Shown here one piece after another: positions 5,219 to 58,640 of a DNA stretch of 64,000 nt (position 1 is its first letter; each line of letters begins with the position of its first letter). The stretch comes from a virus. Taxonomy: Duplodnaviria; Caudoviricetes. The notes beneath the pieces were generated by a model. That model was not told where the DNA came from and made no database searches. It worked only from the letters and a program-made list of their open reading frames with translations. Position numbers and translations under genes: made by a program. The DNA lies in the IMG/VR virus record IMGVR_UViG_3300028048_000068, positions 64,001-128,000 of that record; one strand, 5' to 3'.

Positions 5219-7097
5219 TATTCTCCTATTGTTATAAGTTCTCCGCTATAAGGAAGTGTTTTAATCCAGTCGCAAAAATCTGTCCACTCACGCAGTTTAT
5301 GATTCTTACGCTGGAAATATATATTACGTAGATTCGCATAGGACATTGTCACAGTACGAGTCTGCAAATATGCACTTGGAAGTATTTGTATAAGTGCGCG
5401 CCAGTAAGCCTTATCGCCAGTTTCAAGAAACTTTAAACGTAAATTTTCACACATTGTAACTATGTCTTCTACATAATCTTCAAATCTATATTCCCATCCA
5501 TCAGAATGTGGAGCAGTACCTGAAGCTACAATAAGGTCAAGCCCATCGAATTCAAACATTTCTTTTGTAATTGGAATTGATGAAAGTTTATGCATTGTAG
5601 ATGTGGAGTTTGCGACCGTGCCTACTTTATAAGTATCAAACTCTTTCCCATTTGTGGACTATCTTTTACTATATTTCTATAGGATACCATTTCGGCATTT
5701 AAGATGCTTCGTTTCCTAAAACATCGCTACGTATCAATAGTAGCCCTACTCCCCTGCCCAGAAGGTGGAGGGGATAGTCTCTACAGGTTCATAATTATAA
5801 CAAATCTTTTAAAGAGTATTTCATATTAAATGGAATGATAACTAATCGAATATTATGTTTTTTACAATATTCTTGTTTAAGTTCATCATGTTTAGTCATG
5901 ATTTCAAAATTATTACCCCAGTCTCCATCTGGTTGAATATAATGCTGTTTACCATTATATTCTATTAAATGGGATAATTTATGATTACTATTAAAAATAG
6001 CAAAATCAAAACGTAGATGGCCGCCGTTTAAGCCAAATAAATCTGGAAAGGTGTATTGTGTGGCAAATTCAATATTATTTTCTTGTAACATCTTAGCAAT
6101 ATTTTGTTCATTTAAAGAGTGAACACATCCGCAACTTTTAACATAACCTGCACGAATAGACGAGCCACGAGTAATAAAATAATTACCACAATGTTTACAC
6201 ATACATCTCCATAGCGCTGTTCCTTGTTCGTCTGACCCTGCGCGAGAAATAATTTTTAAGTTTTCATCCTCATAATTAGACATATCAATGGTATTATTAG
6301 AAGCTTTTTCTTTTTGTAAGCATCCACAAGATTTTGTATGTCCATTATTTAAATTGCGAGTATCTACATCCAATTCATTTCCACAACGACATTTACAGTG
6401 CCACTTGCCGCCTTTTATATAAAACATTGGTGTTAAATACCCAAATTGTTTACCAGTAATATCTACTCTTGGTTTTGATTTTCTAGTTTGTTTTTCCATT
6501 CTATTTTCCTCCTTCTACTTATAAGTAGAAAAAGGTTTCTTACTCTTTAAGATTTTGAAACTTTTATGTTTCCCACGGGATTCTATGGGTAGTTCCCCGT
6601 TAGCCGCTCATGCGACCCCTACCGATAAGTAGGAAAAGTATTTCATTGGCAGAAAGAATTACCTACCAATACAATGGCGCCGTTATATCGACCGACACAA
6701 AGATTTGTCTCATAAATTTAGCGTGTTCATTTCCTGCTAAAACTAACCTCTGTGCCAAATTAAGGTCGCCCGGTCCAATAAAAGCAACTTCATAAACATG
6801 GTTATGCTCATCTACTCGTAAAATACCTTCAGTGCTTAGCCATTGTTCATACTTTTCTAATACATTATAATACTCATTATAGTCTTCCATATCATGACTA
6901 TATTCTTCGAGTCCGCGCTCTCTACGTTTAATATTCTCGTTTTCAATCCATGCATCACAAACATCAGTTAATGAGTCATCATCAAAAATACTGACTAAAC
7001 CAAAACAGCTATCAGACTTATCCCATGAGTTCATGGGGTTGCGCATACCTCTGATACTACCTTCAAAATTATAAACATGTGTATTTTCAAATTTCAT
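5218..7097 (-). CDS. thyX: ThyX-like FAD-dependent thymidylate synthase, spliced: exon1 7097-6665, exon2 5648-5218 (287 aa)
   Basis: Joining the exons restores ...ITAPLYW-W-KEFDTYKVGTVANSTSTMHKL...LPSAYLQTRTVTMSYANLRNIYFQRKNHKLREW. It is a divergent family lacking the canonical RHRxxS motif. Confidence 0.75.
5795..6499 (-). CDS. Intron-encoded homing endonuclease (two Cys-rich repeats plus a Vsr/DUF559-like nuclease domain)
   Basis: Two WxCxCxxG...KSCGC repeats and a C-terminal RFDFAI...IEYNGKQHY...D..K.EYC..HNI.L..IP. It lies inside the intron. Confidence 0.8.
   Translation of the reverse strand: MEKQTRKSKPRVDITGKQFGYLTPMFYIKGGKWHCKCRCGNELDVDTRNLNNGHTKSCGCLQKEKASNNTIDMSNYEDENLKIISRAGSDEQGTALWRCMCKHCGNYFITRGSSIRAGYVKSCGCVHSLNEQNIAKMLQENNIEFATQYTFPDLFGLNGGHLRFDFAIFNSNHKLSHLIEYNGKQHYIQPDGDWGNNFEIMTKHDELKQEYCKKHNIRLVIIPFNMKYSLKDLL
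6520..6549 (-). promoter_or_regulatory. Putative phage-specific (late) promoter TAAAG-N17-TACTTATA overlapping an RBS-sequestering hairpin
   Basis: The same bipartite motif occurs at 32657, 37541 and 58704. A palindrome spans 6513-6530. Confidence 0.6.
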
Positions 7098-7385: not shown

Positions 7386-7881
7386 TTTTTATCTCCCAAT
7401 GATTATTTTTTCTTATCCATATACGTTGATTGCGGCTTCCCCTTAGTTGTAAAGATAAGTCTTTTTCTTTTTCGATAAAAGGCCCATCAACTAATATGTC
7501 AATTGTATTTAATATATTTAATAGGTTTTCACTAGGCTGAACCATTAGTTCTTCATAAGTATAGCCTGTCCATAGAATAATTTCAATAGTTGGATATGCA
7601 TGACGTACTGCGTCAATAACTTCCCAAGTCATATCTATGTTTTGTGCCGCCAATGGCTCGCCACCTAATACTGAAAAATTACGATTAATGTTATTGGCTG
7701 CGATTGCTTTAATAATATTCCATTTTACTTCGGGAGTGTAAGGTACACCCCCATGAAAATCCCAAGTTTCTTCATTAAAACAGCCTGGACAGTGGTGCGG
7801 GCAGCCTTGTACAAAAAAACTGACACACACCCCATGTCCGTTGACAACATCATTCGGTATTATTGCACTATATCTACTCAT
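7378..7881 (-). CDS. nrdG: Anaerobic ribonucleotide reductase activase
   Basis: GCPHHCPGCFN radical SAM motif, LGGEPL, D.LVDGPF and LRGSRNQR. Confidence 0.95.
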   Translation of the reverse strand: MSRYSAIIPNDVVNGHGVCVSFFVQGCPHHCPGCFNEETWDFHGGVPYTPEVKWNIIKAIAANNINRNFSVLGGEPLAAQNIDMTWEVIDAVRHAYPTIEIILWTGYTYEELMVQPSENLLNILNTIDILVDGPFIEKEKDLSLQLRGSRNQRIWIRKNNHWEIKND

Positions 7882-53597: not shown

Positions 53598-54263
53598 ATG
53601 GTTATATATTTTAAAAATCAAAAGGCATATGAATATAGAACAAATAAGGCGCAAAATGATGCATTTATTGAAGGATGTATAGATGCCGTATATACAGGTA
53701 AACGAGATATTGATATAAAGTACGGAATTGAAAGTTTATTTCTATCCAAACGTGAAGCCGTATCTGTTGTTTTTCCTATTGAAAGTTCTTTTATTAATTA
53801 CAGTGATGAACTAGATTTTGATAAAAAGTATTGTGATTTAAATAATATTCAATATAGATATCAAGATAGAAAAGGCAGTACTGTAATGGCTTTTCAAGGA
53901 GATATATATATTTATGATTTAAGATTGAATAAAGATCATGAACCTTTAATCCACAAATTTATACAAGATGTAATTACATATTTAAAAATTCGTACTGGTA
54001 AAGAAGCAGTACTCGATGGTAACGATATACTTCTTGATAATAAGAAAATATTTGGTATGGTATTTCAATATTATCCAACAAAATATGGTGATTATAGTTA
54101 TATGGGAGGCATATTATCTATTAATTCAGATGCTAATGTGATTGAAAAAGTATGTTATAAGAAATCAGGTAAAATTCCAGGATCATTAATGGAGTATTCG
54201 ATCACAACAGATGAAATGGTAGAGTGGCTTCTTAAGTGGTTTCATCAGCATAGTATTCAATAA
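53598..54263 (+). CDS. Lipoate-protein ligase (LplA/BPL)-like protein
   Basis: GNDILLDNKKIFG, and a degenerate R.GSTV...GD motif. Confidence 0.6.
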   Translation: MVIYFKNQKAYEYRTNKAQNDAFIEGCIDAVYTGKRDIDIKYGIESLFLSKREAVSVVFPIESSFINYSDELDFDKKYCDLNNIQYRYQDRKGSTVMAFQGDIYIYDLRLNKDHEPLIHKFIQDVITYLKIRTGKEAVLDGNDILLDNKKIFGMVFQYYPTKYGDYSYMGGILSINSDANVIEKVCYKKSGKIPGSLMEYSITTDEMVEWLLKWFHQHSIQ

Positions 54264-54267
54264 AATC

Positions 54268-54293
54268 AAAGACTACATCGTAGTCTTTTTTTT
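54268..54293 (+). terminator. Intrinsic terminator
   Basis: AAAGACTAC-ATC-GTAGTCTTTTTTTT. Confidence 0.85.
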
Positions 54294-54362
54294 ATTGCTT
54301 AAATTTTTTAACCTCTTGACTCAAAAAGTTATAACCTCCTAATCCAAAACCCACTTTCCTTA

Positions 54363-54501
54363 TGAGTAAGGGAGTTCAACCTTCTAAAATAAAAAGTTAA
54401 ACTTACTAGCCAAACCCCCTTACTCAAGTTAACCGATAGGCACAAGACTTAACTCTTTGAGCCTAGGGATAAACTAATTTACATAACTTCTCTAGGCTCA
54501 A
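54363..54501 (+). ncRNA. Structured 5' leader of the six-gene operon
   Basis: Stems 54363-76/54413-26 and 54457-69/54489-501. The segment 54435-50 is complementary to 55526-41. Confidence 0.55.
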
Positions 54502-54522
54502 CCCTACATAGGAGGTATATAA

Positions 54523-54900
54523 ATGTCTTACGTCTATTACAACCCAAATCCACTTAAACTATCCGTTGGCGATTGCACAATCCGCGCCATTTCATGCGCA
54601 TTAAACTTCACATGGGAACAAACTTACAACGCACTCGCACGGCAAGGCTTCGAAATGTGTGATATGCCATCGGCTAATAGAGTATGGGGAACTTTTTTGA
54701 AGCAACAAGGTTTTAAAAAGTATCAAATGCCAGACCTATGTCCAGATTGTTATACAGTTAGAGATTTCTGTTATAATAGTCCCTATGGCACGTTCATTCT
54801 CGGAACGGGAGAACACGTAGTATGTGTCATAGATGGAGATTACTATGACTCTTGGGACTCTGGCAACGAGATACCATTATATTATTTTAAAAGGAGTTAG
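54523..54900 (+). CDS. Operon gene 1: small putative papain-like Cys peptidase
   Basis: GDC.IRA...HVVCVIDG.YYDSWDS gives a candidate Cys-His-Asp triad. Confidence 0.55.
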   Translation: MSYVYYNPNPLKLSVGDCTIRAISCALNFTWEQTYNALARQGFEMCDMPSANRVWGTFLKQQGFKKYQMPDLCPDCYTVRDFCYNSPYGTFILGTGEHVVCVIDGDYYDSWDSGNEIPLYYFKRS

Positions 54901-54902
54901 TC

Positions 54903-55334
54903 ATGGCTTACAACAATTATTTTCCACAGACGTATACGTCTCCGACTTACACATACGGCGCGACTGCAGCCCCTGTACAGACATGGGCGACACCGGCGCA
55001 ATCGACAAACCAACAAGTAAATGCAATTAATTGGGTACAAGGTGAAGCTGGCGCAAAATCAGTACCCGTGGCGCCAGGTCAAAAGGTTCTGCTTATGGAT
55101 AGTGAAACCAATGTATTCTATGTCAAATCATCTGACGTCTCTGGTATGCCATTACCTCTTCGTATTTTTGAATACAAAGAGGTGTCCAAAGTCGCGTCAG
55201 ACGAGGTGAACGCTAGCGCGCAGAATACGTATGTCACCCACGAAGAGCTTGAGCGTATACTTGCAGATTTAAAAACAAAAGAACAGTCAAAACAAGAGAA
55301 GAAGGAGGTAAAGAAAAATGAGTTCATTATATAA
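54903..55334 (+). CDS. Operon gene 2: hypothetical protein with low-complexity N-terminus
   Basis: WVQGEAGAKS.PVAPG..VLLMDSE...FYVKS.D.SGMP core. Confidence 0.75.
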   Translation: MAYNNYFPQTYTSPTYTYGATAAPVQTWATPAQSTNQQVNAINWVQGEAGAKSVPVAPGQKVLLMDSETNVFYVKSSDVSGMPLPLRIFEYKEVSKVASDEVNASAQNTYVTHEELERILADLKTKEQSKQEKKEVKKNEFII

Positions 55335-55521
55335 TGATTTCAATCCAGGACCAATAGGTAATATTGCCAATCTTCTTTCTCAATTTCACCAGTTTAGCTC
55401 GACTTTTTCTGGCAATCCAGAAATGCGAGTAAAACAAATGCTACAAAATGGTCAGATGAGTCAAGAACAATTTAATCAAATAGCTCAAATGGCTAATCAG
55501 TTATATCGTTTTATTAAGTAA
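55318..55521 (+). CDS. Operon gene 3: small Gln-rich helical protein
   Basis: GNPE..V.QMLQNGQMSQEQFNQ, AGGAGG RBS. Confidence 0.75.
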   Translation: MSSLYNDFNPGPIGNIANLLSQFHQFSSTFSGNPEMRVKQMLQNGQMSQEQFNQIAQMANQLYRFIK

Positions 55522-55575
55522 TTTAAAGTCTTGTGTCTATCTCACTAAATTTTTATTTTTAAGGAGGTAGACTAA

Positions 55576-57159
55576 ATGTCACTTACAGATGGTAATGGAT
55601 TAAGTGCTGCTGATGTTGCAGCAGTAACAGGCAACGGCGGTGGCTTCGGCAATGGCTGGGGCGGAGATGGTGCTTGGTAGATAACTGCCAAGGGTAAATC
55701 GCGGAATTAAGCGGGAAGGCTGAGATGCTAATCCGAACCGAAGGTTATAGGTAAAACTATAATCAGGGGCAACGCATAGGTTCTGAAACTCTATATGAGA
55801 ATATAATGAACCCACGAGGCCGCGATAGTTTTTAGAACTTGACATTTTAATATAATTATGATATAATATAATTAGGAAAATTAGAATGTCAATAAGAGGT
55901 ACGATATGAAGAAAGGTAGTTTTTATACAATAGATGATTACGAAATTACATACGATGGGCAAGTTATAAATAAACATAATGATTATGTTCTAAAAGGGCG
56001 ACCTAATTCAAAAGGTTACCTAAGAGTAAAAATTGGCGGGAAAATGATGTTTATTCATCGACTTGTTGCTGAAAAGTATGTTCCTAATCCAGACAATAAA
56101 ATGCAAGTTAATCACAAAGATGGTAATAAACTAAATAACTCTGCTGATAATCTTGAATGGGTAGATAATCAAGAGAATCGTAATCACGCAGTAAAAGAAT
56201 TTTTACATTTACAAGGTGAAGATTGTCCTTATTCTAAATTGAATTGGGAGGCTGTAGATTATATTCGAGCCAATCCAGATCATCTTTTACAAAGAGAGCT
56301 TGGCGAAATGTTTGGAGTATCAAGAACTACCATCGGTGATATAATTCATTATCGTACTTGGAAACGTAAACCTAAAAACTAAAAAGATATGCTGAACTTA
56401 TACGAATAAGAAGTATAAGAAATAAGAGATAAAAAACTCTTATGATAACAAATTGGGTTACTCGTTCTTTTCCTTTTTGCTTTCAATGGCAACTGGGGAA
56501 ATGGTTGGGGCAACAATGGCGGAAGCAACGGCTACGTAGTTTCTGATGTACAAAGAGGTTTCGACCAGAGCGCAATCATGAACGGAATCAGTGGTGTTCA
56601 GAGCGCAGTTACAAACGGCTTCGTAGACACAGCGGCTGCTCTGTGTAATGGATTCGCTGGCGTAAACGGCGCAATCTCCAATGGCTTCGCACAAGCTGAA
56701 ATTGCTAACAACGCTCGTCAAATGGCCAACATGCAACAGGTCTATGGACTTCAGTCTCAATTCGCTGATTGCTGCTGCGAGAACAGACTCGCTTCGGCAG
56801 ACCTGAAGTACACAATTGCAACGGAAAACTGCGCAGATAGAACTGCCCTTTCCGATGGTGTCAGAGACATTCTCACAAACCAGAACAACGGTATTCAAAG
56901 AATTCTCGACCAGATGTGCAACGACAAAATCGACGCCAAGAACGAAAGAATTGCTGACCTTGAGAGACAGCTTACAATGGCTAATCTCGCTGCTTCACAG
57001 AGCGCGCAGACAGCTCAAATTCTTGCTAACAACGATGCACAGACAAACGCTCTGGAGCAATACCTTGCACCAGTTCCACGTCCAGCATATATCGTTCAGA
57101 ACCCTAATGGATGCGGATGCAACAGCATAAATAGCTGTGGATGCGGTTGTGCATTCTAG
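55576..57159 (+). CDS. Operon gene 4, spliced: exon1 55576-55678, exon2 56456-57159 (268 aa); Gly-rich/hydrophobic N-terminus, coiled coil, Cys-rich tail
   Basis: AAGGAGG RBS at 55561. Splicing gives MSLTDGNGLSAADVAAVTGNGGGFGNGWGGDGAW-W-LLVLFLFAFNGNWGNGWG..., in frame with ORF 56578-57159. Confidence 0.85.
55679..56455 (+). ncRNA. Group I intron in operon gene 4 (777 nt)
   Basis: P1 is CUUGGU/AG pairing with CUGCCAAG. P3 is AUCGCGG(55698)/CCGCGAU(55820). P7 is GCAUA/UAUGC. There are P9 hairpins and a terminal G. Confidence 0.88.
55906..56382 (+). CDS. Intron-encoded HNH homing endonuclease
   Basis: GYLRV...HRLVA...VNHKDGNKLNN.ADNLEW....N..H plus a C-terminal HTH. Confidence 0.9.
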   Translation: MKKGSFYTIDDYEITYDGQVINKHNDYVLKGRPNSKGYLRVKIGGKMMFIHRLVAEKYVPNPDNKMQVNHKDGNKLNNSADNLEWVDNQENRNHAVKEFLHLQGEDCPYSKLNWEAVDYIRANPDHLLQRELGEMFGVSRTTIGDIIHYRTWKRKPKN

Positions 57160-57170
57160 GAGGTAGTACT

Positions 57171-57623
57171 ATGGCAGAATATTTAGCTAATGCTACACAA
57201 CTGGTTGACCTTAATCAGCCAGTAGTATTCAGTGCTTCTATTCCGTGTCAGAATGGATATGTAATTCATGAAGACGAAACTGGAATTTTTATTCTACGAG
57301 GCGCTACTCCTAATTGCTTTGCAAGATACCAAGTTACTTTTAATGGTAATATTGCTGTACCTGAAGGTGGAACAGTTGGACCGATTGCGGTTTCAATTGC
57401 GGTTAATGGCGAAGCTAGAACGACTTCGCGCGCGATTGTAACGCCGGCCGCGGTAGAAGAGTATAACAATGTAACTTCAACTGCAATTGTAACTGTCCCA
57501 CGTGGATGCTGCTTCAGTGTTAGCGTCCGCGCAGTCAGCGGAATTGTCGATGATGCGGCAGGTACCCCTGCGCCGGCAATTAATGTAACCAATTCTAACT
57601 TGGTAATCAACAGAATCGCATAG
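57171..57623 (+). CDS. Operon gene 5: beta-sandwich protein, BclA-CTD/C1q-like
   Basis: All-beta pattern G.F.L.G....YQVTFNGNI...V.V.......IN..N.NL.I.RIA. The start follows GGAGG. Confidence 0.55.
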   Translation: MAEYLANATQLVDLNQPVVFSASIPCQNGYVIHEDETGIFILRGATPNCFARYQVTFNGNIAVPEGGTVGPIAVSIAVNGEARTTSRAIVTPAAVEEYNNVTSTAIVTVPRGCCFSVSVRAVSGIVDDAAGTPAPAINVTNSNLVINRIA

Positions 57624-57634
57624 GAGGTATATGT

Positions 57635-58147
57635 ATGGAAAAGAAAACAATGGATGCTCTCCGCGCGATGCTTTGTGGAGAGATTGAGGATATTGCAAAG
57701 AAAGGCAATTTAACTCATGAGTCGCTGGATATATTAAAGGACTTAATTGAAACCGAAAAGAATTTAGGTAAAATTGAATACTATGATAAAGAAAAAGAAG
57801 AGTCTCAGGCACTTATGATTCCGGGATATAGTCAGAGAAAGTATTATATAGATGCTGACTATCAACCAGGCCAGATGTCATACGCTGGGCCGCGAGGTTC
57901 ATACAACATGGGCGGAGGCTCATACGGTATGGGCGGAAACTCATATGGCGGCCGCATGGTTTATGATGTTGATAGAAACTCTTATATGTATATGACTCCG
58001 CAATATGACCAATCAATGGCAAGAGGATATAGTAGAACAGGGTCGAAGACGGAGATGGTAGAAGAGTTAAAGACTATGATGAATGAGACCACCGATCAGA
58101 CAGTGAAAACAGCTATTCAAGATGCTATTGCTAAAATGAATAAGTAA
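57635..58147 (+). CDS. Operon gene 6: helical ends with a Tyr/Gly/Met/Ser low-complexity core
   Basis: GSYNMGGGSYGMGGNSYGG and RGYSR. Confidence 0.75.
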   Translation: MEKKTMDALRAMLCGEIEDIAKKGNLTHESLDILKDLIETEKNLGKIEYYDKEKEESQALMIPGYSQRKYYIDADYQPGQMSYAGPRGSYNMGGGSYGMGGNSYGGRMVYDVDRNSYMYMTPQYDQSMARGYSRTGSKTEMVEELKTMMNETTDQTVKTAIQDAIAKMNK

Positions 58148-58152
58148 GTTTG

Positions 58153-58181
58153 AAAACGGGTACTATATGTACCCGTTTTTT
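58153..58181 (+). terminator. Intrinsic terminator
   Basis: AAAACGGGTAC-TATAT-GTACCCGTTTTTT. Confidence 0.88.
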
Positions 58182-58293
58182 GTATACGAAATACGTTGAG
58201 AGCGGCCGCTCAATTTCTTGTATAAGTCAGTTCAACTTGCTCATAAAATAGGTTGACCGCGCGCCCTCAACGTACAACTTCTACGTTCAAAAT

Positions 58294-58322
58294 TTGACTT
58301 TGTGTACCTTTTGTTATATACT
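58294..58322 (+). promoter_or_regulatory. Sigma-A promoter
   Basis: TTGACT-17-TATACT. Confidence 0.65.
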
Positions 58323-58388
58323 ATTAATAGAGGGTATGCATATCCATGTTAGACTAAAATTAAACTTATACCTACGGAGGACAAGACA

Positions 58389-58640
58389 ATGAAAGTTAAA
58401 ACTTTTAAAGGACAGTATGAATTAGTCGAATTTGACCATTACATGGACGCTAATGATGGTGCAATGGTATGCGTACTAGATTTACTTTTACGTACAGACG
58501 ATTTAGACCATGTAGAAGATGAATTACACGACATCTTCGCGGTAGATACAGACAAACAGTCATATGTATTTTCACACTATGAAATTACTGATTGTTTTAT
58601 TGATGATAACGGCCTTGTTCGAGTAATTTGTGTCAAGTGA
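58389..58640 (+). CDS. Stand-alone small acidic hypothetical protein
   Basis: 83 aa with its own promoter, RBS and terminator. Confidence 0.7.
   Translation: MKVKTFKGQYELVEFDHYMDANDGAMVCVLDLLLRTDDLDHVEDELHDIFAVDTDKQSYVFSHYEITDCFIDDNGLVRVICVK

Follow-up and report, generated by a model that had tools for sequence, protein, structure and literature searches.

In the exosporium and endospore appendages (F-ENA) of Bacillus, trimers of ExsF and BxpB bind proline-rich leader peptides in the clefts between their subunits, and residues 1-19 of BclA are removed by proteolysis (PMC12357932, PMC10470788). A protein with the predicted fold of BxpB and of the BclA C-terminal domain (BclA-CTD) is encoded by the fifth gene of a six-gene cassette, g1 to g6, in a Caudoviricetes phage genome, the 136.6-kb IMG/VR record IMGVR_UViG_3300028048_000068, which is rated complete by CheckV. 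The window analyzed here comprises bases 64001-128000 of this record (64,000 nucleotides). The initial annotation of the window described the six genes as an operon; all six are real and lie on the + strand, as judged from the listing of open reading frames (ORFs) and from relatives, and they form a true, mobile, and self-contained accessory cassette of Bacillota phages.

Relatives were collected from IMG/VR by a search with g5, which returned 438, and by a search with g4, which gave 175 at one genome per species; 160 loci were kept. Family hidden Markov models (HMMs) built from these loci were scanned over all ORFs, and synteny was counted in the 100 loci with full flanks. The exact order g1-g2-g3-g4-g5-g6 is found in 71 of the 100, so that the genes do co-occur in other genomes, and g4 is accompanied by g5 in 99 loci, by g1 in 90, by g6 in 88, by g2 in 86, and by g3 in 72. 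A minority form is permuted, with g1 shifted to the end and all six families retained. The cultured Butyrivibrio phage Ceridwen carries g1-g5 in the same order, directly 3′ of its endolysin gene and two small genes. Carriers are phage genomes from the rumen, the human gut, lemur, and rodent, and similar clusters, as suggested in the initial annotation, do recur in gut and rumen Clostridia phages.

The genes that flank the cassette differ between genomes, which indicates that it travels as a whole and comes to lie distally in the late region. In small phages, the commonest neighbors are a holin gene and an endolysin gene (NlpC/P60 plus PG_binding_1) upstream and an integrase gene, on the opposite strand, downstream; in 56 loci the cassette is preceded by a holin gene and an NlpC/P60 endolysin gene. 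In large relatives of the window phage, the neighbors are receptor-binding genes that vary from genome to genome. The window genome itself has a + strand late region that encodes Dit, a 1,836 amino acid (aa) Tal-like protein, tail proteins, and receptor-binding-type proteins, followed by a weak LplA-like gene and then by the cassette.

Directly upstream of g1 in 33 loci is a gene for a 79-aa protein (e.g., L079:4749-4988) that by eye resembles a sigma-70 region-4 or LuxR-type helix-turn-helix (HTH). It has no Pfam or PHROG match, is absent from the window, and may encode a dedicated regulator of the cassette. Butyrivibrio sp. INlla21 (G001) carries two copies of g4 approximately 80 kb apart on one contig (C22:111403-112146 and 192297-193058), which presumably belong to two prophages. 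The labels Prevotella, Methanobrevibacter, and Saccharibacteria given to metagenome-assembled genomes with cassette contigs were not used as host evidence, as these look like phage contigs binned by chance. The tracking of the g4 N-terminal type by g1 similarity was likewise dropped as an argument for co-variation, because one crossover inside g4 would link its neighbors equally.

Five of the six proteins match PHROGs of unknown function (3754, 21718, 22984, 16490, and 20016), and g6 matches none. Neither the six proteins nor divergent members had a match at threshold in Pfam, NCBIfam, or PADLOC, PDB sequence-profile searches with the g1, g5, g4, g2, and g6 alignments returned chance-level rows only, an ESM Atlas search returned only the proteins' own viral clusters, and literature searches, including searches for BclA-like phage cassettes, found no description of the cassette. 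A cassette that is common and expressed in vivo is thus without a function in any library used.

Predicted structures of the cassette proteins

The g5 protein is shown by its predicted structure to have the BclA-CTD/BxpB fold. The model, with a predicted local distance difference test (pLDDT) score of 94.7, is a jelly roll of ten to eleven strands that yields Foldseek matches at probability 1.00 and template modeling (TM) scores of 0.62-0.76. The highest structural Z score is to the F-BclA head (17.6; root-mean-square deviation (rmsd) 1.9 Å over 125 residues), followed by BclA-CTD (15.4-15.7), BxpB (14.7), and ExsF with an F-Anchor peptide (14.6), whereas C1q and TNF proteins (13-14) and cyanophage fiber tips (12.6) rank lower. 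Phage proteins among the matches include the fibers of cyanophages A-1(L) and A4 and the spike knob of phi812. The beta-sandwich described earlier as C1q/BclA-like accordingly finds its closest folds in exosporium BclA-CTD, BxpB, and ExsF.

Compared with BxpB/ExsFA and BclA-CTD of the Bacillus exosporium and F-ENA (PDB 8d02, 9h3d, 1wck, and 9h38; Z 14.6-17.6), the g5 model has the same jelly roll and aligns with an rmsd of about 2 Å over 121-130 residues. It also resembles BxpB and ExsF in being a stand-alone protein of about 150 aa that has no collagen stalk. Its nearest BFVD models are stand-alone proteins of 130-142 aa from uncultured gut phages, and the two longer forms found are probable gene-call fusions; since g5 nearly always stands alone, its architecture is like that of BxpB/ExsF and not that of BclA. 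Conversely, g5 has no Pfam or NCBIfam profile match (E <= 1 or 0.1), the PDB profile search with it was empty, it is encoded by phages, including phages of non-sporulating hosts, and its neighbors are not exosporium genes. The trimeric state and peptide docking of the Bacillus proteins may extend to g5 by likeness. Relatives of g5 are 149-150 aa long and do not use the possible start at 57141, so the start is placed at 57171, where the g4 stop codon lies inside a TAGGAGGT ribosome-binding site seven bases 5′ of the ATG. A stop codon inside TAGGAGGT links g5 to g6 in the same way as g4 to g5.

The AlphaFold model of g1, made from a 50-sequence alignment, has a pLDDT of 95.3 and can safely be assigned a papain-like Cys-His-Asp peptidase fold, although assignment to a subfamily would not be safe. 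Foldseek gives weak matches, while in an exhaustive structural search every top row is a clan-CA cysteine peptidase (Z 6.4-7.1): Josephin-2 (7.1), staphopain C (6.9), a C39 double-glycine protease with its leader peptide (6.6), PCAT1 (6.6), ComA (6.4), and AvrPphB (6.4), with the entries 6mpz and 7s5j (Z 6.6) and 5xe8 and 3b79 (Z 6.4) among the matches. Weaker fold matches include CHAP, Tae, and Tse wall peptidases. By size, this minimal peptidase comes nearest to the C39 and Josephin domains (Z about 7). Across the 50 sequences N9, D17, C18, R21, W31, H98, D109, and S113 are invariant and a CPDC motif at 73-76 is nearly so; in the model C18 is at the N-terminus of a helix, with H98 and D109 on consecutive strands. 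Fold and invariant residues thus agree with the Cys-His-Asp peptidase-like character first proposed for this gene.

Among described enzymes, g1 can be compared with peptidase C39 (ComA, PCAT1, and LahT; PDB 3k8u, 6mpz, and 7s5j), with which it shares the papain-like fold (Z 6.2-6.6), a length of about 125-150 aa, and the placement of the nucleophile Cys near residue 18 and of His and Asp near 98 and 109. However, g1 has no match to the family profile in Pfam, NCBIfam, or PDB-sequence searches even at E <= 1, Josephin and staphopain score equally well, and the CPDC motif is an additional conserved feature. The 125-aa protein also stands alone, neither fused to nor adjoining an ABC transporter, and no transporter is found among the gene families neighboring the cassette in more than 100 loci. 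Relatives of g1 occur alone in the early regions of Tsamsa-like Bacillus phages, in Geobacillus phage GBK2, and in the Prevotella Lak megaphages, so that the peptidase family is wider than the cassette. The g1-like gene of Bacillus phage Izhevsk (L164:4471-4866) is one example, and the neighbors in Tsamsa-like phages are a Ser/Thr kinase gene and an Ocr-like gene.

The g4 protein belongs to a large family without annotation, which includes at least 8,000 close members and falls into 2,412 clusters at 50% identity. Spliced g4 is 268 aa long, and its intron-less close homologs have 262-275 aa. The family is characterized by a conserved M-[AS]-L-T start, an acidic N-terminal tail (median 33 aa) that in 126 of 149 sequences contains neither Lys nor Arg, a hydrophobic core of 11-15 residues that is bordered by Trp and set in Gly/Trp/Asn-rich flanks, a heptad-like stretch, and a median of 11 Cys, which is also the number in the window protein. 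After the rest of the hydrophobic segment, the second exon of the window gene encodes, in order, a Gly/Trp-rich linker, a Cys-rich helical region with the motifs LCNGF, CCCENR, ENCADR, and ILDxxC (of which LC, CCC, ENCADR, and ILDxxC are invariant across the family), a coiled-coil-like stretch, a Pro-rich stretch, and the tail NGCGC...CGCGCAF. The Gly/Trp-flanked hydrophobic segment and the coiled-coil-like region of the earlier description are therefore retained, but its CC pair is in fact the three Cys of DCCCE. The search found no fused longer forms of g4.

Shorter relatives of g4, of about 200 aa, are present in 140 Vibrio phage records and retain the hydrophobic patch, CCC, and ILDKLC, which argues that the function of g4 is independent of a Gram-positive or sporulating host. 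These genes lie 3′ of a lysozyme gene and two overlapping small genes, 3′ of a tail gene, or near an endolysin gene. In all three records examined (12VC501, 82E32.3, and D474), the g4-like gene is followed by an unrelated gene of unknown function of about 65 aa, and together the two give the impression of a related cassette, of two genes, in Gram-negative hosts. Examples of Vibrio g4-like loci are L165:4243-5033, L166:3929-4771, and L167:3932-4772.

The three remaining proteins are of low complexity, with compositions as first described (G/M/Y-rich in g6 and Q/N-rich in g3). In g2, which has no PDB or Pfam match, a conserved small domain (WVQGEAGAK...) lies between the N-terminus and the tail, and no family, PHROG, or PDB match was obtained for g6.

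Boundaries and transcription of the cassette

Transcription was followed in contigs of two metatranscriptome runs (X2 and X3) from one bovine rumen sample, set against two DNA runs (X1 and X4). The cassette is transcribed in the cattle rumen together with the neighboring tail-fiber-region genes. RNA contigs of the upstream genes end at 54250/54252, and a 16.3-kb RNA contig begins at 54383, directly after Illumina adapter letters, and spans the cassette, the hairpin that follows g6, and the downstream genes. The position 54383 is a weak hint of a transcription start, and a 5′ transcription boundary of the cassette is plausible; such contigs cannot prove a single transcript. Bounding terminators had been proposed on both sides. 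The upstream one is called by the terminator scanner, and its hairpin shape is kept in relatives despite changes in the stem sequence, whereas the downstream hairpin is missing from the scanner list and is traversed by RNA contigs for another ~12 kb, so that insulation at the 3′ end of the cassette is not supported. The coordinates of all features are collected in Table 1.

Table 1. Features of the cassette and its borders in the window.
Feature	Coordinates	Strand	Description
Intrinsic terminator	54268..54296	+	9-bp stem 54268-54288 plus T-run (terminator scanner); closes upstream tail-fiber/LplA-like unit
Promoter-like region	54310..54383	+	TTGACT 54316-54321; TATAA-N17-CACTTTC 54330-54358; RNA contig 5′ end 54383
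5′ leader	54384..54522	+	Conserved 13-bp hairpin 54457-54501 just 5′ of g1 ribosome-binding site
g1	54523..54900	+	125 aa; predicted minimal papain-like cysteine peptidase; phrog_3754
g2	54903..55334	+	143 aa; Y/P/Q/T-rich N-terminus, conserved small domain, K/E-rich tail; phrog_21718
g3	55318..55521	+	67 aa, Q/N-rich; phrog_22984; sub-threshold SHOCT_2 match
g4 exon 1	55576..55678	+	Acidic Gly-rich N-tail, start of hydrophobic segment; matches N-termini of intron-less homologs
Intron in g4	55679..56455	+	777 nt, self-splicing type; HNH ORF 55906-56382; sigma-70 promoter 55839-55867
g4 exon 2	56456..57159	+	Rest of hydrophobic segment through GCGC tail; invariant Cys columns; phrog_16490
g5	57171..57623	+	150 aa; predicted stand-alone BclA-CTD/BxpB-like (TNF/C1q-fold) jelly roll; phrog_20016
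g6	57635..58147	+	170 aa; helical ends, Y/G/M/S/R-rich low-complexity core
Terminator-like hairpin	58153..58181	+	11-bp stem, six T; read directly from sequence

The variant late promoter proposed in the initial annotation was TATAA-N17-CACTTTC. The promoter-like block around it is conserved in 10 relatives, and locus L010 has a full TTGACT-17-TATAAT there. The motif itself is single in the window, 7 of 100 shuffles also match it, and neither it nor its -10-like box recurs within the window; a single occurrence gives no means of confirming it as a recurring late promoter or a variant of one. Downstream of the TTGACT box, relatives conserve in order a CACTT box, a leader with a GATAGGCACAAGAC box (54430-54446), and a hairpin whose stem arms, TTGAGCCTAG and CTAGGCTCAA, are themselves conserved; the whole leader folds with z = -2.0. 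As hairpin and GATAGGCACAAGAC box are kept across ten relatives with differing surrounding sequence, they may have a regulatory function as RNA, or be bound by a protein, upstream of g1.

Possible roles of the cassette

The account that is tentatively preferred, and to which rather less than even confidence is attached, is that the cassette makes one late multi-protein assembly with an envelope role at the end of infection, in which g4 would be the anchored stalk, g5 the head, and g1 the processing enzyme. The g4 protein would serve as the scaffold, with the Trp-flanked hydrophobic segment behind its Lys/Arg-free acidic tail holding it in or on the cytoplasmic membrane, or else buried in the core of an oligomer, and with its Cys-rich helical and coiled-coil part forming an oligomeric stalk. 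A g5 trimer might dock onto the conserved Pro-rich peptide of g4, by analogy with the docking of BclA and F-Anchor leaders by ExsF/BxpB trimers, while g1 would trim a Gly-rich stretch in g4 or in the low-complexity proteins, and g2, g3, and g6 could act as adaptors or matrix. Because the cassette lies distally in the late region, next to receptor-binding or lysis genes, an envelope role (exit, exclusion, or debris masking) is favored over a spore-specific one.

Several observations weigh against such an assembly. The hydrophobic core of g4 (11-15 residues) is short for a membrane helix, and its coiled coil, oligomeric state, and topology are predictions from sequence. The other five proteins, by reading, have no hydrophobic stretch suggestive of a signal peptide, so that an external structure would need lysis or an unknown export route. 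The occurrence of g1 alone in Bacillus phages and of g4 alone in Vibrio phages implies that either protein can act without the others, and the linkage of the genes could reflect co-regulation rather than a complex.

T4 holin T, the i-spanin Rz, and PBSX XhlA are single-anchor lysis proteins with large helical Cys-containing domains, and g4 would resemble them in a single, short putative hydrophobic anchor near the N-terminus followed by a long, predicted helical or coiled-coil domain with conserved Cys. The cassette could be an accessory to lysis or exit, in which g4 would be a late membrane-active protein in the manner of T4 holin T, XhlA, or a spanin and the other products would tune the timing or completeness of envelope breakdown. 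The g4 gene often adjoins holin and endolysin genes, the cassette is found 3′ of them in the 56 loci mentioned above and in Ceridwen, the Vibrio g4-like genes follow a lysozyme gene and two overlapping small genes or lie near an endolysin gene, and g1, whose weaker fold matches include CHAP, Tae, and Tse, could cut wall or envelope proteins. This role is nonetheless somewhat unlikely: these phages already have a holin and an endolysin, a spanin is unnecessary in monoderm hosts, g1 lacks an export signal and is best matched by peptidases of the intracellular type, and the adjacency to lysis genes seen in many loci does not hold for the window genome, where the nearest endolysin-like gene is ~48 kb away. 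Moreover, g4 has no detectable sequence similarity to holin T, Rz, or XhlA and no holin or spanin family match, its hydrophobic core is just 11-15 residues long, its Gly/Trp-rich flanks, CCC motif, and GCGC tail have no counterpart in those proteins, and it is accompanied by five partner genes. A part of the virion, with a trimeric g4 stalk and distal g5 head as an auxiliary fiber or decoration that would be matured by the protease g1 and assembled with the help of g2, g3, and g6 as chaperones, is less probable again. BclA/C1q-like heads do cap phage fibers, as in the matched A-1(L), A4, and phi812 proteins, and in the window and its close relatives the cassette is directly 3′ of receptor-binding protein genes, and in the window it shares an RNA contig with downstream tail-fiber-region genes. 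In most small phages, however, it lies outside the structural block, 3′ of the lysis genes; none of its proteins matches a virion-annotated PHROG, a Trp-flanked hydrophobic segment is unusual for a fiber, and g5 is missing beside the Vibrio g4 relatives. As a moron, the cassette would produce an envelope-anchored complex, from a prophage or late in infection, that bars the entry of other phages (superinfection exclusion) or alters the surface of the cell (lysogenic conversion). Its place between lysin and integrase is a classic cargo position, and its own terminator-bounded unit with a conserved upstream region, the small HTH-like gene directly upstream in 33 loci, and the two copies in INlla21 would fit as well; but Ceridwen, known only from the lytic cycle, also carries it (PMC7372960), PADLOC gives no match, and six conserved genes are many for exclusion, all of which makes a moron decidedly unlikely.

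The N-terminal tail of one g4 subfamily has the form L-S-x-x-D-V-x-x-V-x-G-x, which approaches the leader pattern of double-glycine peptides. A bacteriocin-like toxin released by lysis, in which a Gly-rich, hydrophobic, and Cys-rich g4 would lose its leader to a C39-like g1 and act on neighboring cells, would also suit the fold, size, and triad positions of g1. The second g4 subfamily departs from this pattern, though, g1 has no Pfam C39 match, g4 is far larger than typical double-glycine peptides, and the cassette has no ABC exporter or immunity gene, so that such a toxin is very improbable. Equally doubtful is the remodeling of host spores by phage-supplied exosporium- or coat-like proteins (a BxpB-like trimer, Cys-rich and Tyr/Gly-rich proteins, and a protease), close to the spore coat or exosporium role suggested in the initial annotation. 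The closest structures to g5 are indeed exosporium and endospore-appendage proteins, the Cys-, Tyr-, Gly-, and Gln-rich compositions are reminiscent of coat proteins, and SpoIVA is encoded in 7 of 9 carrier genomes. Among 399 sampled Clostridia genomes, however, g4 occurs in eight, of which seven have SpoIVA, as against 304 of the 399 (Fisher p = 0.69), and SpoIVA is lacking in Butyrivibrio sp. INlla21, with its two g4 copies, and in Selenomonas sp. AE3005 (G001 and G002). For Ceridwen, only lytic growth has been observed, on Butyrivibrio fibrisolvens (PMC7372960), and Vibrio phages carry g4 relatives. With SpoIVA-less carriers, no enrichment in sporulators, and the lytic growth of Ceridwen on a Butyrivibrio, a spore-specific role is unlikely. 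It is also conceivable, if improbable, that gut Bacillota phages carry a kit for an exosporium-like layer or matrix whether or not their hosts sporulate, and that virions would be protected or tethered in it during transmission, as a counterpart of occlusion bodies. Here g4 would provide an anchored Cys-rich lattice or stalk, g5 BxpB-like docking trimers, g2, g3, and g6 a Tyr/Gly/Gln-rich filler, and g1 the processing protease, and the layer would form on the remnants of infected cells or around progeny at lysis.

That phages carry, beside tail-fiber or lysis genes, a fold of the exosporium type together with a small, dedicated cysteine peptidase and a heavily Cys-rich, putatively anchored protein points toward an infection-cycle stage in gut Bacillota that lies outside current models. 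A cultured system, Ceridwen on Butyrivibrio fibrisolvens DSM 3071, makes the role of the cassette directly testable.

Introns in g4

Group I introns with HNH endonucleases are known from phage genes such as T4 td and nrdB, and from phages AR9, PBS1, and LIS04. The homing intron that the initial annotation placed in g4, as a sign of a conserved gene, is confirmed in RNA: the contigs of X2 and X3 join 55678 to 56456, dropping exactly 777 nt that the DNA runs keep, and intron-less homologs read ...GAWW|LLVLF... across the junction. With the described introns it shares precise excision, a P1 helix in which CTTGGT (55673-78) pairs with GCCAAG (55687-92) and places a U.G pair at the 5′ splice site, a terminal G (56455), a free-standing HNH ORF (with HNH_3 and phrog_59 matches), and a 5′ core that resembles introns of Bacillus phages AR9 and PBS1, Listeria phage LIS04, and a Staphylococcus phage. 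It differs from them in residing in a gene of unknown function and not in a DNA-metabolism or core structural gene, and in not being scored by the Rfam model RF00028 (E <= 1 over 54000-58500 and E <= 10 over the 5′ core), a miss probably explained by the ORF interrupting the core. The intron contains a perfect TTGACA-17-TATAAT promoter, with an extended TG, 39 nt upstream of the HNH ORF, so that transcription of the endonuclease need not depend on that of g4.

The same insertion site is filled in a close allele (L019) and in a divergent g4 allele that is 40-47% identical (L154). A related contig of ~130 kb (L139) has a different, ORF-less group I intron at the CCC motif of g4 (7439-7740), which RF00028 scores at 70.5 bits. 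With two separate sites hit, both in its best-conserved stretches, g4 is a recurrent target of homing and an instructive case of intron homing beyond the genes of DNA metabolism.

Two further genes of the window may be recorded. A stand-alone 221-aa protein with a sub-threshold match to the LplA/LipB catalytic domain (E 1e-4) is encoded at 53598-54263, where it ends the receptor-binding cluster just 5′ of the cassette. On the - strand at 5795-6499, ~48 kb from the cassette and on the opposite strand to it, lies the sole match in the genome to the endolysins that adjoin the cassette elsewhere.

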